A stretch of DNA of 64,000 bases from an uncultured virus (IMG/VR IMGVR_UViG_3300029305_005079) (lineage: Duplodnaviria > Heunggongvirae > Uroviricota > Caudoviricetes): IMG/VR virus record IMGVR_UViG_3300029305_005079, one strand, 5' to 3'. Positions 18,267 through 29,521 of the stretch are shown here, piece after piece; the first letter of the stretch is position 1, and each line of letters opens with the position of its first letter. The position numbers and the translations under genes are program-made. The notes under the pieces were generated by a model, which was given only the letters and a program-made list of their open reading frames with translations, did no database searches and was not told the origin of the DNA.

Positions 18267-21200
18267 TTAAATAAGGCTGATATACATAAGAATTTCTTCG
18301 CATATCAACTCCGGAATTACAGTAATTCGCTGACCGTCTAACTCGCAATCTTCAGGATCAATAATTTCAAATTCACTACTAAGAATGACAGCAATAATAC
18401 CAAGAATATGCTTCTCAATCTTATCATTCCTATACTTGTCTTTGATCTTTTCCCAAAGAGGAGAAGACTCCAGCTTGGTAAGCTCTTTCTTATTCACATT
18501 CTTACGTGTAGCAAGACGCAATACTTTAGAGCTTACGATATGAGGCAGCATAACCATTCCAGAAGCTTCTAGAATTCGCTTTGCTGCAATAATAAGCACA
18601 ATATAATCATCCAGATTGATCATATTTAACGCTGAGGTCATTTATATTCATATAAGGTCGTTAATCTTATACCGTTCTCTTATGAACTGCTATATGTCAC
18701 CATATAGATTAGACTATATCTTTATCCACTTATTTCAGTTGGGATAACTACCATTTCCACTCACTTGAGTGTACGTCTTATTAGACTAGTCGTTGAACCT
18801 TTCTATTATAGAATTGCAATTTTAAGATACATACATCCGTTAGAATCTATATCCGGCTCTATATTATATACTTGCTGTTTCATATATATTTCCGGAATAT
18901 CGTTTATATCTGAATAGATATGATGTATATCGCGATCATTCGCATCAAAACATTCTCGAATAGGTACAATCTTATATTTATAAGAATTTTGCCTAACTCC
19001 AGGATTTTGATGCTCTAAAATATCAGATAATTTTAAAATCATATCTTTAATCCTCCTATACTAGACTTGGCTGCTGATTGTCTCTCTCGAGAGTTCCCAG
19101 CAATTAAATAGTTGTTGTTTTCTCTGTATATTCCTATACAGGGGAACTTTCTCAAATCCCCAAAATACTTGAAAAATAAGTTAAATACTAAATCTCTCTG
19201 GAATGCATTTACGGTACATTTTGCTCCATCTGATAGTCTATGCTTATAATACTGAATCTCATCAGGATCAAAAGGACCGTACATAAGCTTTATTTGATTC
19301 ATAGCATCATCTGACGCTGTCTGTGCTTGTACTAACAGCGCAGTATCAGCTTTGTTGAGAAAACTTTCGAACTTGTCGAATTCACTCGTTTGTGTTCACA
19401 TAGGTCGCTAATCTATGCAGTTCTCTTATGAACTTCTATATATTTCTATACAGACCAGACTATATCATTACCCACTTATTTCAGTTGGGGTACTCTCCAT
19501 TTCGAACTCGCTTGAGCCCTACTCTACTTGATTCATCTATATACTTAAATGTCTTTCGATAGTCGTTGAACCTTCCTATATAGATAGGCTTGGCTGCTGA
19601 TTATCCCTACATGTATGATCAGAGGATTTCCCAGCAATTAAAAGAGTTTATTGTCATAGCATTCCTACTATGCTGAACTAGTTGTAATATTAATTCAGAT
19701 CTTCGTCACGTCTGGACGAGGAGAGCGAAATAAAACTAAATTCGTATTCTATATCCAAAATCTGGAAGCCTGTATTGCGTAAGATTGATTTATAATTAAG
19801 ATGGACAAGGTTGCCATCATAACGATACTTAGGCATAATATTTATCAATACATTCTGTACAGATTGTAGAGTATGAATACTTGTATTTATACCTCTAATA
19901 TCCTGCATATTCCAAATAGTCTGATTTCGTTTAGCAGTTCTCAGAACATTTGAGATTGCAGTTTCGTAGAGTTTGTTATATATGTCTATATCATACTTTC
20001 TGTCATATTGTTCGATAAGTATGTCATAGACACTTAAAATAAATTCCGTGGAATTGGTAATCCCACGGGCATACATAAAATGACACATTAATGGAATCAT
20101 ACAATTCATAATGGTAGATGCTTTCATCATCACCTGACCATGTCTCGTTATTTTCACCTAGACCGCGGCTAGGCAGTTATCAATCAAACTGTTACTAAGA
20201 TTGATATCATCTTTAGGATTTGCCTAAAGACAAGACTATATCTTCACCTTCAGCTCTACCTGTTAAGGTGCTCCCCATTTCGGATCTCGCTTGAGTCCTA
20301 CTCTACTCACTACTTCTATAAACGCCGGTGGTATTTATAGAAATGTTTTCGATAGTCGTTGAACCTTCAAACTGCGCCCTCCCCGGGCTTTATGTACTTC
20401 CGTGCGCCAGGGTTAAAAAGGTAAAAATGTGTTTCGTGGTTTGCCAATAAAAAGAAAAATACGTTCAATAAAAAGTTTCTGGTGCCGATGACAGGACTTG
20501 AACCTGCACGGACTTATCCACTGGTTCCTAAGACCAGCGTGTCTGCCAATTCCACCACATCGGCATATATTTATTAAAGCAAACAAACGAACTTCCAGGG
20601 TTTGGGGCGGCGTAGTGCTTGGCTGCTGATTGTCGATTGTCGATAATACTTAGAGTTTCCTCATATATCATCTTATCTGTTTTTTCTGACTTTCGTCTCT
20701 ATGGGAGCATGACGATAACTTTACGCCTTCTCCTGTAGTGGATAAGCTTTACGACTTCCCAGCAATTAGAGGAGTTTGTTCCGCTATATTTCTATATCGG
20801 AGTGACTAAAATTTTGTTGTAATCACTGTATTGCAAATTCGGATTCTTGAGATTTTTGTACGTCAAATTCAAAGAGTAGTTATCTCTATTCATGTATCCA
20901 ACTTTAAGAGAAATGGATCCATTCATAATATAACGTGTCAAATCGTAGAAGAATGCTTCTCTCGTATATGCAGGCTCATAATCGATAAGATACTTAAGTC
21001 TGCAATATATCATAGGAAGCTCATGCTCTAAGTCATAGAATTTTTCAAAGTAATTTAAATACTGAATTGTATGAGCTCTCATCTCAGGATTATTATAAGA
21101 ACGTTTCGTACTCATTACAAAGGCATCGAGCTGAGGATTCGGCTCCATACCAAAAAAGGAAGAAACGTCTAACATAATTGCCCCTCGGACGGTCTTGAAG

Positions 21201-22376: not shown

Positions 22377-22676
22377 CTATTTGATTATTTTAAAATAGCC
22401 ATAACATGTTTTATTTGATTTCATACCTTCTTTGATTTTAGGATCATCAGGATAAGGCAGTACATCAAATGGACCAGAATAGTCATATAATCCCGAATCT
22501 ATTCTGTCTTTTCCCTGATAAGCCCAATCTATTAAAACACATTCTATAGGTATTAAAGTATCTGGATTATCATACTCGATAGCTGCAAACATATTTTTAT
22601 CTTTTGTAGATTGCATTATTTTCCATCCACTTTTATCATTCTTCATAATTTCTATATAAGGTATTAAATTATTCAT
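22377..22676 (-). CDS. hypothetical protein
   Basis: coupled to the rtcB stop. Confidence 0.6.
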   Translation of the reverse strand: MNNLIPYIEIMKNDKSGWKIMQSTKDKNMFAAIEYDNPDTLIPIECVLIDWAYQGKDRIDSGLYDYSGPFDVLPYPDDPKIKEGMKSNKTCYGYFKIIK

Positions 22677-23818
22677 TTTGTTTCACCATCCGCTTTAAAG
22701 TTATATATTGGTCGGATTATACCATCAATTCTAACTGTATCGCTTATACGTTTAGTAAGATATTCCATCGATTTATAAGCCATGGGAGCTTCATCTATAG
22801 TACTTCTCATAATAGAAGTACTATAAATTCCTTTCATACTCTTTTTAAATTCAGAAAGAGTAATAGCATTTCTAGCTTCCTCTCTAGACATTAATCTTCC
22901 TGCTCCATGCGGTGCAGAATCGTTCCAATCTTCATTTGCTTTTCCTGTTACTATAAGCGATCCATCTCTCATATTAATCGGGACAATAGATCTCATCCCT
23001 CTAGCAGTAGAAATACAGCCTTTTCTCATTCTATATCTATTGCCAGCGTTATCAATAATAAGACGAATATAGTTATGACAGCTGTTAAGTCCATCAAATA
23101 TATCATATTTCCATTTCATTTCAACGCATATTCGTCTTAAAATGGTCAATCTATTTATATGAGCGAATTCTTCAAGCATATCTACATCTTCTACAAAATC
23201 TTCTGCAAACTCACCATCCAGATAAGTAAATGCGTAAGGTTCTTCAGGGTGCTGTTCTTTTGCCTTAGTTTTATAAAACTCTGCAACTTCAGCACCAAGA
23301 TGACGACTTCCGCTATGAACGATAAGCCAATAGTAGTCTTTGTCTCCTACAGTTTCGATACCAAGTTCAATGAAGTGATTTCCTCCACCGAGTGTTCCAA
23401 CACTTCTAAGAGCTTTATCCTTATTAAATACATTACAGTTAAGCAAATCTAGCATATCTCCATCCATAGCTAAATTATTTAAAGGTTTATCATAGATTCT
23501 CATTCCATTTGGAATTTCAAAATCTATAAATTTATCTAACTTTTCTAGATTAATTTTAGGCTTTCCATGAAGCCTAATTCCAGTTATTCCACATCCTATA
23601 TCACCTCCAAGCAATATAGGAGAAACTTTATCTTTTGTATCCATACTGGTACCGATAACACATCCGGCTCCTGCATGAACATCCGGCATAATTCTTATTT
23701 TAGCATCTTTTCCAATTGTACTATTTACAAGAGCATTTATTATACCTAATGAATTTGTATCAATTATATCTGTAAATACTTTGCAGTTTTCAGATATAAT
23801 AGTTTCATAATTTCCCAT
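22673..23818 (-). CDS. rtcB: RtcB-family RNA ligase
   Basis: MPDVHAG, GGDIGCG, GTLGGGNHFIE, VHSGSR, HN, RKG, SAPHGAGR, DEAPMAYK. Confidence 0.95.
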   Translation of the reverse strand: MGNYETIISENCKVFTDIIDTNSLGIINALVNSTIGKDAKIRIMPDVHAGAGCVIGTSMDTKDKVSPILLGGDIGCGITGIRLHGKPKINLEKLDKFIDFEIPNGMRIYDKPLNNLAMDGDMLDLLNCNVFNKDKALRSVGTLGGGNHFIELGIETVGDKDYYWLIVHSGSRHLGAEVAEFYKTKAKEQHPEEPYAFTYLDGEFAEDFVEDVDMLEEFAHINRLTILRRICVEMKWKYDIFDGLNSCHNYIRLIIDNAGNRYRMRKGCISTARGMRSIVPINMRDGSLIVTGKANEDWNDSAPHGAGRLMSREEARNAITLSEFKKSMKGIYSTSIMRSTIDEAPMAYKSMEYLTKRISDTVRIDGIIRPIYNFKADGETK

Positions 23819-26310: not shown

Positions 26311-29300
26311 TTAAAATACAGGATTTGACATCTTTCCCTTGTCTTCTTCAAGGCAGAGAGTAAGATTGTACAAACTCTGAATGGCTTCTTTATCGGAAGT
26401 TCTAACACCCTTAGAACCAAGATTAAAGTAATGAGATTTAGCTCGTAACTGTTCATCTAATTCAGCATTAGCCTCTTCTGAAAAGACTCCTTTGATCGTA
26501 ACTTGGTCACCATCCTAAATAATTTTATGCTCGCAACGCATTTCCTATCTTTCGATAGTAATTAGACTATATCATATCAAGAATACTCTTGATCTCCCCG
26601 CTTCGAATCGTCATTAGCCTACGATCCTACTCTACTTGATTCATCATATAGATGTCTTTCGATAGTCGTTGAACCTTCTCTTTATATAAAGAGCTTGGCT
26701 GCTGATTGACATAGGATTTATCCCTTAGCTTTCCAGCAATTCAAGGAGTTTAAGGATTACAATCGGTGAAGTTTATAATCCGTATTGGATTTATGATTTA
26801 TACATACTACCTTTATTTTCATAAAGGGCTAGACTATATCTTATCTCTTATAGAGATCTTCCCGTTTCGGATGTCTCCTACTCTACTCGATTCATATTTC
26901 TATGTCTTTCGATAGTCGTTGAACGTTCTCCCTTATTAGAGAGCTTCGCTGCTGATTAGCATATCTTTTGACTTAGCTTTCCAGCAATTAGAGAAGTGTT
27001 TATTTACATCGGAGGCAATTAATGATGGTTTACCACCGATGCCGTCAAGGTATAGATTGGTCAAATTCAAAGTATCAATAAATCTATTTGATGTATTTGA
27101 ACCAATATCGTTTTGACGGATAAGAGGATAATTCTTATAATAAGTACCATTGATAATCATAGGTTCTGTCTTTGTAGTAGACGAGATTCTTACTTTTGTA
27201 GGGAATTGGTTAAAGTAGCTATCGCAATATCTTCATATGGAGTCGTTAATTCCATACCGCTTTTTAAAGCAGCTCTAGCTCACGCTAGAAGTTGAGACTA
27301 TATCTTTACCCTTTCGGGTACTCCCCATTTCCACTCACTTGAGTGTACTCCATTTCTGGATAGTCGTTGAACATTATTCAATACATGTAAAGAATTTCTT
27401 TTCCAAGTGATCTAGCAAATTCTATTTCACTTTTTGTAGATTTTCCAATATAGCCATCTTTATTTATTACATAAATAGCATCAGCCATACGAATTTTTTC
27501 TTTATGCATTCTATCAAGCATTTCTTTATTTGAACCTTCCCAAGCTTCTTCATCGCCTGAATGTCCAAATAAACCCACAGAGATAACTATATTCCCTCTA
27601 AGAGTAAGCTCTTTTTGAGCTTTGATAAAGTCATCTTTAAATTTTGTCGAACCGCATAAAGTAATTATTGGAAATCTGAAATTATTAATGATTGAATCTT
27701 TGCTGCTGATTGTCTCTATAACTGTATTATCTGAAGAGAAATTATAATTTTTCTTTTCGATAAGCCTATTAATATTGATTCGTTTAAGTAGATATATGTG
27801 TTCATCTTGTTTGATTATTTCTTGCAGTTCATCTACTTTGGGAAGAGTAGAAAATCTGTATCTTTCATAATCATTAAAGAAGTCTATATATACCTCTCTA
27901 GCCATATATGGTGATGTATATGCAGGTTGGAATATCCAATTAGATCTTATATCAGATCCGTCTACATATATTTTGAGATATATACATCTATTGTCACCAG
28001 GCACAAAATACTGTCTTGAGTTATTGAATACAGCTGTATAAATTTCTTTAATATTCTGAACTTGATAGGCTGTAAGCGCTATCTTTTCAGGACTAGCTGT
28101 TTTAATAAAATTATCTACAAAATCACTCATATTTATCACTCCTTTATTATATTACTAAAATGATAAGATATGATTATAGTTGTAATAAGAGACGTCCCAG
28201 CAATTAAAGGAGTTTTCACTAGTAGATTTCTCTACTAGGCGACCAATTTGATCGGATATCTAGTTATTAGAACATGCTTATCCTTAGTTGCTTCAACTGC
28301 AGCCATATAAAGAACATCACACCATGTGAGATCTCGCTCCATAATAGGAAGCTGTCCAGGATCGTGCTTAGCATATTCTTCCTCTGTCATACCATATCCC
28401 TTAAATCTAAGAACCACAGTTGGTCCTTCTACAGTAGGAACCCTGATCGGAATAAATCTATTTGAGAATCCGGTACAAAATCTATCGATTTCTTTACGGA
28501 TTCTTTCATCGGAGAATTCAACCTGGTAATCCTTTGGATGCAAATAAGATACTGTTCCATTCTTAACCATAGGGATTACGGAGTCTCCGGAAAATTCATT
28601 TTCAAAGAATCTTCTTACATGATAAACTACAAAAGGTAAGAAGTTTACGCATGCAGATGCTAGAGGAAGCAAGGAATAATCCAAATCAGCCTCAATATCA
28701 TCTAAGCGTTCAACTTTCAATTCAGGAGCGGAAAGAACAAGACGTGAACCATAGTCAGTAGTCTTACTCATAACAGCTCTTCTTAGAATACCTGTCTTAC
28801 CAGGAATTATGTTTGTAGTCTTCTCTCCATTAATAGTAGTACCAGAACCAAACCAGTCGTAAATTTGTACAAGAGTTTCTTGAATTCTACCTCTTGTAGC
28901 AGCATTTAGATTTAGTCCGTATTCTGAAGATTCTTTAAGAGCTTTTACAAAAATAATAAGATTTCTATAAAGCTCATTAATCTCTCCTACAGCAACGTGT
29001 CCGCCTTCAGTGTTAACGTCTCTATAGTATGCAGGACATACTACAAATTTGCGGATAAACATTTCCGGAGTACCCATATATTTTTCAATAAATTGGACTC
29101 TCATATCACGTTGTCTAGAAGAGGTTCTTTTAAGTTTAAATTTGTCTATATTTTTTCTAATGAATCCAATACCATTTTCGCCATTCTCATCAGGAACTAG
29201 TTCTCCATCTTTAATAATGAAAGTATTAGTACCATGAACGCATGCTTTGATATTGGAATCTATTTTGCACCACATTTTATAGATAAGAGGATTCATAAAA

Positions 29301-29521
29301 TACTCTTCAAGATTAATGTATGCAAAAGTATTTGCTCGATCATATTTTGTAATTCCAAAAATCTCATTAGACAAAAGTCCATCTGAAGTTGGAACTGAAT
29401 TTCGAACAAAGAATACTGGATTGGTTACTTCTTGAAGATCATTAACCTTTACCAGCTTTTCAGGATCTATTAGATTGACCCTAAGATGATTTTCTTGAAT
29501 AAAATCTGGCATTTTCATCAC
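26311..29521 (-). CDS. RNA polymerase beta' N-terminal/catalytic subunit (probably virion RNAP), ~557 aa, 4 exons: 28251-29521, 27032-27224, 26775-26780, 26311-26514
   Basis: DGLLSNEIFG, GKTGILRRAVMSKTTDYGSRLVL. Splicing gives ITRYP(AT|C)DSYFNQ and GIGG|DY|DGDQVT (catalytic DxDGD). Late-type promoter variant CACA-N6-TA at 29527-29538. Confidence 0.9.
26515..26774 (-). mobile_element. group I intron F (260 nt)
   Basis: P 26732-26741; Q 26698-26707; R 26663-26673; S 26565-26573; P1 GAUUAU/GUAAUC; terminal G at 26515. Confidence 0.9.
26775..26780 (-). other. 6-nt micro-exon GATTAT (Asp-Tyr of the RNAP DYDGD motif)
   Basis: lies between the terminal G of intron E and P1 of intron F; needed to complete the catalytic motif. 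Confidence 0.88.
26781..27031 (-). mobile_element. group I intron E (251 nt)
   Basis: P 26980-26989; Q 26948-26957; R 26913-26923; S 26832-26840; P1 AUCGGUGGU/GCCUCCGAU; terminal G at 26781. Confidence 0.9.
27225..28250 (-). mobile_element. group I intron D (1026 nt) with an internal ORF spanning the P5 and P6 loops
   Basis: P 28196-28205; Q 27702-27711; R 27361-27371; S 27296-27304; P1 CGAU/GUCG; terminal G at 27225. Confidence 0.87.
27378..28139 (-). CDS. intron-encoded 253-aa protein with C-terminal nucleoside 2-deoxyribosyltransferase-like/DUF4406-like Rossmannoid domain
   Basis: ITLCGSTKF...HKEKIRMADAIYVINKDGYIGKSTKSEIEFARSLGKEILY; RBS AAGGAG; no endonuclease motif. Confidence 0.7.
   Translation of the reverse strand: MINMSDFVDNFIKTASPEKIALTAYQVQNIKEIYTAVFNNSRQYFVPGDNRCIYLKIYVDGSDIRSNWIFQPAYTSPYMAREVYIDFFNDYERYRFSTLPKVDELQEIIKQDEHIYLLKRININRLIEKKNYNFSSDNTVIETISSKDSIINNFRFPIITLCGSTKFKDDFIKAQKELTLRGNIVISVGLFGHSGDEEAWEGSNKEMLDRMHKEKIRMADAIYVINKDGYIGKSTKSEIEFARSLGKEILYMY

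Follow-up and report, generated by a model that had tools for sequence, protein, structure and literature searches.

A predicted six-base exon between two group I introns in the catalytic-motif coding sequence of a phage RNA polymerase gene

Introduction

How can a gene keep encoding its catalytic site when the codons of that site are interrupted twice, at positions only six base pairs (bp) apart? This question is raised by the DNA of an uncultured virus of the class Caudoviricetes (IMG/VR record IMGVR_UViG_3300029305_005079), of which a stretch of 64,000 nucleotides (nt), referred to below as the window, was analyzed. The virus is a giant gut phage that encodes an RNA polymerase (RNAP) of its own, and the gene for the catalytic subunit of this enzyme, split by three introns designated D, E and F, lies on the minus strand, to which all features of the window described below belong. 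Read along that strand, ...GGT GGT is followed by 251 nt (intron E), GAT TAT, 260 nt (intron F) and GAT GGT GAC. The answer proposed here, to which we give a probability of about 0.85, is that both introns E and F splice, and that the exons are thereby joined through the six-base exon GAT TAT into the catalytic motif GG-DY-DGD.

Phage genes that contain group I introns, those for RNA polymerases among them, are well known, as are genes with more than one intron. Jumbo-phage RNAP genes are described as often split by introns (10.1101/2020.12.14.422802), and 2513 group I introns are reported from 136 of 139 curated gut jumbo-phage genomes (PMC12880540). The present locus is unusual in its geometry: the exon between E and F is no longer than a group I recognition helix, the same six bases would be the 3′ exon for intron E and the entire 5′ exon for intron F, and they encode a residue that is indispensable to the enzyme. 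The locus is therefore of interest mainly as a natural test case in which two ribozymes would share a single exon of recognition length. It also matters for annotation, as such genes will be cut short by gene callers, at the cost of their catalytic residues.

Identity of the Gene and of its Exons

Exon 1 (28251..29521) was delimited from the list of open reading frames (ORFs), by tblastn matches to AR9 g145 and to Staphylococcus and Listeria phage genes, and by DNA alignment to an intronless relative, IMG/VR locus L008, an alignment that stops at 28251. It starts with the GTG at 29521, with alternative ATG codons at 29518 and 29512, and its 3′ end reads ...AGA TAT CCG AT. A tblastn search with its ORF of 428 amino acids (aa) matched 255 phage records, the best of which are annotated as the N-terminal subunit of RNAP beta-prime; among the best matches are the beta-prime gene of Listeria phage LPJP1 (34.7% identity, E 6e-67), Bacillus phage AR9 g145, annotated as “virion RNAP subunit” (29.6% identity, E 1e-52), and likewise genes of Staphylococcus jumbo phages. 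The intronless L008 protein matched the bacterial beta-prime chain 8x6f_D with a whole-sequence E of 3.7e-05, and GGDYDGDQ came to lie over NADFDGDQ (the ADFDGDQ stretch), such that homology and alignment of the motif with the catalytic loop were both found. By these comparisons the gene is identified as that of the beta-prime N-terminal subunit of an AR9-like jumbo-phage multisubunit RNA polymerase. The aspartates of the beta-prime motif bind the catalytic Mg2+.

Exon 2 (27032..27224, 193 nt) was placed by tblastn with LPJP1, by DNA alignment to L007 and L008, and by the spliced model; it ends CTT GAC GGC ATC GGT GGT (L-D-G-I-G-G), with 27032 as its last base. The last exon (26311..26514, 204 nt including the TAA stop) rests on the LPJP1 tblastn match (E 5e-08), on DNA alignment to L008 and on the spliced model; it opens with GAT GGT GAC CAA (D-G-D-Q) at 26514, and its stop codon occupies 26313-26311. 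Between the two stands the candidate micro-exon, GAT TAT (26775..26780), whose two codons specify Asp-Tyr and whose Asp opens the Mg-binding D-x-D-G-D motif. The intronless rpoC1 of LPJP1 aligns to the locus in three pieces by tblastn, and precisely D-Y, the two residues that the flanking exons lack relative to intronless homologues, stay unaligned in the gap that separates the exon-2 match from that of the last exon. Because LPJP1 leaves exactly these two residues between the flanking exon matches, a chance hexamer is excluded.

When the four exons are joined by their coordinates, they give 1674 nt encoding 557 aa with no internal stops, and this spliced model is 77.6% identical to the intronless L008 protein over 554 aligned positions, with no gaps at all three junctions. 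A preliminary description, drawn up from the letters of the window and a list of its ORFs, had proposed that the motif GG-DY-DGD is assembled from three exons, and both the relatives and the spliced model bear this out. Reading of the minus strand likewise agrees with its statement that D-x-D-G-D is not contiguous in the DNA: a contiguous coding string for the motif is absent from the locus, where it is spread over three exons. The ORF list has an entry neither for the micro-exon nor for the frame of the last exon, just as that description had said of ORF callers.

Two Complete Group I Introns and the Bases Between Them

Intron E (26781..27031, 251 nt) and intron F (26515..26774, 260 nt) are both ORF-less and both match the Rfam group I family RF00028, which has a gathering score of 50 bits. 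The match of E runs from 27041 to 26810 (95.4 bits, E 2.5e-23) and that of F from 26787 to 26543 (78.9 bits, E 2.2e-18); each covers model positions 1-253, and both introns thus exceed the gathering score over the whole model. As the model ends at the P9 hairpin, each intron adds a tail of 28-29 nt before the terminal (omega) G that directly precedes the next exon, G 26781 for intron E and G 26515 for intron F; the tail of F is near-identical to that of the single-intron relative L101. The two full-length matches do not overlap in their cores, each site is singly occupied in relatives, and the bases in between are codons of intronless relatives. The arrangement is accordingly one of two complete, separately bounded introns, neither nested in the other, and the idea of a six-base D-Y exon between back-to-back introns has stood up to this comparison. 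A homing endonuclease is found neither in the 251 nt of E nor in the 260 nt of F, which have no room for an ORF, and neither intron qualifies as mobile by itself.

The choice of splice sites appears to be tightly constrained. In the 517 nt that separate exon 2 from the last exon, hexamers of the form GAYTWY, able to specify D-Y or D-F, occur three times; two of them are GACTAT in a ribozyme core, after C. GATTAT at 26780-26775 is the sole one between the ribozymes, follows a G and precedes an AAAC intron start; of four further introns read at sites E and F, three also open with AAAC. Each 5′ exon has U as its last base and each intron has G, in keeping with the splice-site rules of group I introns. 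As far as sequence can tell, the splice sites are required by these rules, by the P1 and P10 pairings described below and by the intronless relatives, all of which agree with the sites chosen in the preliminary description.

Guide Pairings and Their Covariation

The internal guide of intron E (27011..27021) was identified by a pair check, the Rfam P1 alignment and a hairpin fold. Its GCCTCC (27016-27011) would form P1 with GGTGGT at the end of exon 2, with a U.G pair at the splice site, and TAATT (27021-27017), directly 5′ of GCCTCC, would form a P10 of five pairs with GATTA of the micro-exon. The guide of intron F (26754..26768) was identified by a pair check, a hairpin fold and covariation over eight introns. 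Seven pairs, with U.G at the site, join its GTAATCC (26760-26754) to G+GATTAT, of which the G is the terminal base of intron E and the rest is the complete micro-exon, and the six bases of the micro-exon would hence make up the entire exon-side 5′ strand of the P1 of intron F. The corresponding hairpin has a predicted energy of -8.3 kcal/mol (z -5.25), which none of 200 shuffles matched. As a P10 for intron F, CACC..ATT (26768-26761) can pair with GAT GGTG at the start of the last exon in 3+4 pairs with one bulge. A U.G pair in P1, a terminal G and a P10 were thus found for both introns.

The P1 of site-F introns was aligned over eight introns (those of the window, L006, L101, L143, L146, L179, L185 and L199). 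Standard pairs occupy 56 of 56 cells, as against 30-57% when the partner strand is slid, and U.G at the splice site is kept in all eight. Three pairs are compensatory, with both sides changed, and 0 of 500 shuffles reach the covariation score. The seventh, outermost pair is standard in every intron of the set and takes four forms (UA in three introns, AU in two, GC in two and CG in one). The prediction that the D-Y codons form the 5′ exon of intron F has, in consequence of this conservation, strong comparative support.

This evidence has to be weighed against another way of processing the same precursor, in which E and F would act as one unit, from the 5′ site of E to the 3′ site of F, through a composite ribozyme or the use of a distal 5′ site, and the micro-exon would be skipped. 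The product would be an in-frame beta-prime without the first catalytic Asp, either inactive or regulatory. That skipping keeps the frame and deletes the first of the three Asp, as the preliminary description had pointed out, is correct: the product would have 555 aa and read GG-DGD. In favor of such an event, E and F align over 241 positions with 71% identity and have in common an identical core run of 23 nt, and the micro-exon and the last exon both start with GAT, such that the P10 strand of E partly pairs with either. Skipping is moreover documented, in the account given in PMC10136302, for the 23-nt exon of phage Twort and for tandem Tetrahymena introns placed around a 24-nt exon. However, the six bases are exactly two codons of the intronless relatives, they follow a G and form with the guide of F a perfect P1 of seven pairs that covaries over eight introns, and the P10 strand of E makes five pairs with the micro-exon vs. 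three with the last exon. The guides of the two introns (GCCTCC and GTAATC) are also fully different, the condition that favors inclusion in the engineered system (PMC10136302). Skipping as the main fate of these six bases is, on this evidence, improbable, and the spliced micro-exon remains the preferred reading.

Relatives and Occupancy of the Insertion Sites

Exon 1 retrieved eight IMG/VR loci, L005-L012, of which L005 is the window's own contig. The gene is intronless in L008 and L009 (78% identical) and in L011 (51%), which encode G-G-D-Y-D-G-D-Q in one piece. In L006, L010 and L012 (83%; mutually identical in this region) a single intron of 891 nt stands after D-Y, referred to here as site F, and in L007 (83%) a single intron of 1152 nt stands after G-G, site E, and has the same guide sequence as intron E. 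The metagenome contig L101 has an ORF-less intron at site F (83 bits) and no intron E. Together with L143, L146, L179, L185 and L199, L101 and the L006/L010/L012 group provide the same-site counterparts of intron F.

A wider census used a profile of four intronless proteins, which returned 80 IMG/VR loci, including several identical copies, that were sorted by tblastn with the L008 protein. The gene is contiguous across the motif in 62 loci, split after D-Y (site F) in eight and after G-G (site E) in five, with the exact junctions of L147 and L197 unclear; two loci (L182 and L196) are split after D-Y-D-G, two (L174 and L200) end before the motif, and one, L140, which is again the window's own contig, is split at both E and F. 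In AR9 g145, the second intron stands after D-Y-D, 3 nt downstream of site F. The 15 bases that encode the motif hence contain at least four intron insertion sites, each after U: after GG, after DY, after DYD (AR9) and after DYDG (L182 and L196). Farther upstream, the site at residue 424/425, which in the window is that of intron D, is occupied in 10 of the 80 loci. In L147 (5716-6136), a relative of 55% identity with an intron at or near site E, neither the usual U ahead of the 5′ site nor the usual G ahead of the 3′ site is found at the boundaries suggested by tblastn.

Rfam called no intron in any of L006-L012 at the gathering score; at E <= 0.001, the region of L007 (L014) gave two sub-threshold pieces, of 28.6 and 26.7 bits, and the L006 intron gave nothing. 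The motif introns of L006, L007, L010 and L012 are treated here as group I introns by virtue of their sites, guide sequences and core motifs. Pattern scans were also run. A strict site-F pattern, which demanded one loop base too many, found only the window's own contig in the viral_contigs collection, and a site-E pattern found only the contigs of the window and of L007. With a looser pattern applied to metagenome_contigs, one of 120 loci among the matches listed (L101) was a real site-F intron and the others were chance matches, a result that says little on frequency. Global MAFFT alignments of intron E with the L007 intron and of intron F with the L006 intron misplaced the large ORF gaps and were discarded.

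Related phages carry a natural allelic series, in which the motif is uninterrupted or is split by E alone, by F alone (in some cases with an endonuclease gene, in others lacking one) or by both. With such a series, the minimal length of a shared exon, the order in which the two ribozymes act and the avoidance of skipping become testable.

Support for the Arrangement in Sequencing Runs

In a bovine-gut sequencing run from another study (X11), a 547-nt Logan contig spans 26360-26892; it shows two differences from the window, and both fall in the last exon. Run X1, which may be the source sample of the window, contributes a 180-nt Logan contig that spans 26663-26842 with no difference. In a chicken-gut run (X16), a 25.6-kb contig follows the window on both sides, and 26518-26978 is replaced there by 1089 other bases; this variant is consistent with a single large site-E intron like that of L007. 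The X16 contig shows closely related strains from the guts of different animals to differ in their intron content.

That the tandem is an assembly chimera of an E-bearing and an F-bearing strain might be suspected, as both single-intron alleles occur in similar samples and the X16 variant fits a single large intron at site E. Two such alleles would overlap by only six or seven exon bases, far below the word sizes of assemblers, and the join is present in three separate assemblies, namely the window, the IMG/VR contig (L005, L140) and the Logan contigs of X1 and X11, with X1 again as the possible source. A chimera is exceedingly improbable: the succession of intron E, micro-exon and intron F is real DNA and no assembly artefact.

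A second view accepts the DNA and holds that the gene is decaying, that is, that splicing of at least one of the two endonuclease-less introns has been lost or depends on a host factor that is missing, and that the subunit is not made here. It would account for the lack of endonuclease genes in both introns and for their joint presence in one lineage only. Yet each ribozyme core exceeds the family threshold by a wide margin along the full length of the model, all four exons are open with 77.6% identity to an intronless relative, and in the X11 contig the micro-exon, its two flanking introns and both junctions are preserved, the two differences in 547 nt being confined to the last exon. Decay is very improbable on these grounds. 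The arrangement is confirmed at the DNA level, and its interpretation as a spliced micro-exon is supported by the comparisons presented above.

Several observations weigh against the splicing model and against the identity of the gene. The similarity of E and F is precisely the setting in which exon skipping is described for Twort and for the engineered Tetrahymena pairs (PMC10136302). Both pairings of the micro-exon, with E as P10 and with F as P1, use the same bases and are mutually exclusive. The P1 of intron E contains one internal U-U mismatch, and its hairpin (-6.5 kcal/mol, z -1.96, with 7 of 200 shuffles as good) is marginal; for intron F, Rfam's own alignment of P1 is poor, with many non-standard pairs, and the P1 used here was derived by comparison. 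Double occupancy is seen only in the window's own contig among the 80 IMG/VR relatives. A search of sequencing runs for the locus gave no RNA run carrying it, and the contigs of X20 (labelled transcriptomic, “probably DNA”) and of three DNA runs contained no exon-exon joint and many joints that stem from repeats of the intron family; these contigs are uninformative on expression. As for the gene, its assignment to the beta-prime family is drawn from tblastn matches to annotated phage genes and from a weak PDB match, in which the GGDYDGDQ/NADFDGDQ stretch by itself scores 3.4 bits only, and a Pfam search of the beta-prime protein gave no match.

Proposed Origin and Order of Splicing

From sequence, we infer the splicing of both introns in vivo and its order, as well as a double invasion followed by the loss of endonuclease genes. 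Mobile group I introns would have invaded the DNA of the catalytic motif at two homing sites 6 bp apart, E after GG and F after DY, and both would later have lost their homing-endonuclease genes. The counterparts of these introns in relatives do carry such genes: the 274-aa ORF of the site-E intron of L007 is an HNH endonuclease (phrog_59, E 7e-23), and so is the 208-aa ORF of the site-F intron of L006 (phrog_59, E 5e-33), for which Pfam returned NUMOD4 above the cut-off and HNH_3 at 21.2 bits, below the cut-off of 24.8. The two HNH ORFs are 33% identical. The simplest history would be two homing events by related mobile introns and subsequent loss of both endonuclease genes.

In the resulting gene, E and F would be independent self-splicing ribozymes. 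Intron E would recognize exon 2 by its own P1 and align the micro-exon by P10; the six-base exon itself would be what intron F recognizes, serving as 5′ strand of its P1. The removal of both introns would join the three exons, and GG-DY-DGD, hence the Mg-binding motif, would be restored.

Whether the sharing of six bases also imposes an order is a more speculative matter. The outermost pair of the P1 of intron F uses the terminal G of intron E, and after removal of E this position is taken by the U of exon 2, facing C. As the removal of E turns this pair into a U-C mismatch, the full helix of F would exist in the window only in the precursor. One may hypothesize from this that the six-base exon is a shared substrate that couples both ribozymes and sets their order. 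Intron F would then act first, or would hold the terminal G of E until its P1 is released, and E would subsequently use the freed exon for its P10; the balance between this ordered route and skipping could set the level of active vs. Asp-less subunit. The guide is the same in L143, where the G at the outermost position of P1 is exonic, and the C in the guide of F may for that reason simply be inherited. We regard coupling of this kind as tentative and rather unlikely.

Comparison with Known Tandem Introns

The closest published phage case found is orf142 of phage Twort, in which a 23-nt exon lies between two similar IA2 introns and both inclusion and skipping occur (PMC10136302, summarising Landthaler and Shub, 1999). 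As described there, Twort introns 2 and 3 resemble E and F in that two similar introns of IA type stand side by side around a short exon, with inclusion or skipping possible. They differ in exon length (23 nt vs. 6 nt here) and in that, in the window, the whole exon would be used by the P1 of the downstream intron and also encodes a catalytic residue; for Twort, splicing has been demonstrated, whereas the case of the window is deduced from its sequence. The same source describes engineered tandem Tetrahymena introns around a 24-nt exon, which give inclusion and skipping, with inclusion favored by different splice-site recognition elements, and the 23S rRNA of Coxiella burnetii, where a 34-nt exon lies between two group I introns and skipping was observed (PMC10136302). 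The Coxiella case is alike in being a prokaryotic gene with neighboring group I introns and a short exon; in that account it is unlike in being an rRNA gene, with an exon of 34 nt and introns of different subgroups.

With regard to the gene, the nearest parallels are found in other RNAP genes of large phages. AR9 g145 (GenBank KU878088) is homologous and annotated in three pieces with two group I introns, the first near the site of intron D of the window and the second within the same catalytic motif; unlike in the window, its second intron stands after D-Y-D, both introns carry endonuclease genes and there is no micro-exon. Another jumbo-phage RNAP gene, gp210 of PhiPA3, is described as carrying a group I intron that encodes an HNH endonuclease, inserted in the DNA for the conserved catalytic aspartates (PMC11620839). 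That case, as presented there, differs in that the intron stands alone, its endonuclease is active, the host genome is that of a phiKZ-like Pseudomonas phage and there is no micro-exon.

Shorter exons are reported from organelles. The placozoan mitochondrial cox1 gene contains a 1-nt exon between two group IB introns, with RNA-seq support (PMC5436844). There too, according to that report, a micro-exon between independent group I introns keeps an essential residue, and a second intron was inserted beside a resident one; the differences are that the gene belongs to an animal organelle, that the exon has 1 nt and that RNA-seq intermediates were observed, whereas the window is that of a bacteriophage, with an exon of 6 nt predicted from sequence. 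Tandem mitochondrial introns with very short “pseudo-exons” are also described (PMC12308204). A literature search, which did not cover supplements, gave no description of a phage micro-exon this short between group I introns, and organelle cases only. The shortest published phage example found is the 23 nt of Twort, and the window would represent an extreme variant of the known tandem mobile introns. The preliminary description had called the arrangement extreme for a prokaryotic virus, which holds by comparison with published phages (Twort, 23 nt; PMC10136302), but not as a general record, as organelles have shorter exons (1 nt; PMC5436844).

Intron D and Other Group I Cores of the Window

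The third intron of the gene, intron D (27225..28250, about 1026 nt), is a group I intron with a 253-aa ORF, and its boundaries are placed by homology to within +/-1 nt. Its core motifs are GTTCAACGACTAT at 27360-27372 and GATATAGTC at 27296-27304, and relatives are contiguous across its site; Rfam did not call it at the gathering score. The ORF (27378..28139, from the ORF list) had no Pfam match at E <= 0.01 and no PHROG match at E <= 0.001. Unlike the HNH ORFs in the introns of relatives, it may be a non-endonuclease passenger.

Both core motifs, GTTCAACGACTAT and GATATAGTC, occur six times each in the window, always on the minus strand, while dinucleotide shuffles average 0.05 and 1.07 occurrences, respectively. 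The labels A to F of the preliminary description agree with the six group I cores found by these motifs. Rfam calls four of the six at the gathering score and misses the core at ~18.7 kb and that of intron D. The other group I core regions, found by core motifs or Rfam, lie at 18712-18798, 19436-19702 and 20211-20831. The RF00028 call at 20211-20831 (55.3 bits) contains a tRNA-Leu (anticodon TAG; Rfam tRNA, 58 bits) at 20480-20564, which sits in a 220-nt insertion in the P6 region of the model and would be a tRNA gene in an intron loop. A few kb from this intron-rich, tRNA-bearing region, a 381-aa ORF (22673-23818) encodes what we take, from its appearance by eye, to be an RtcB-type RNA ligase.

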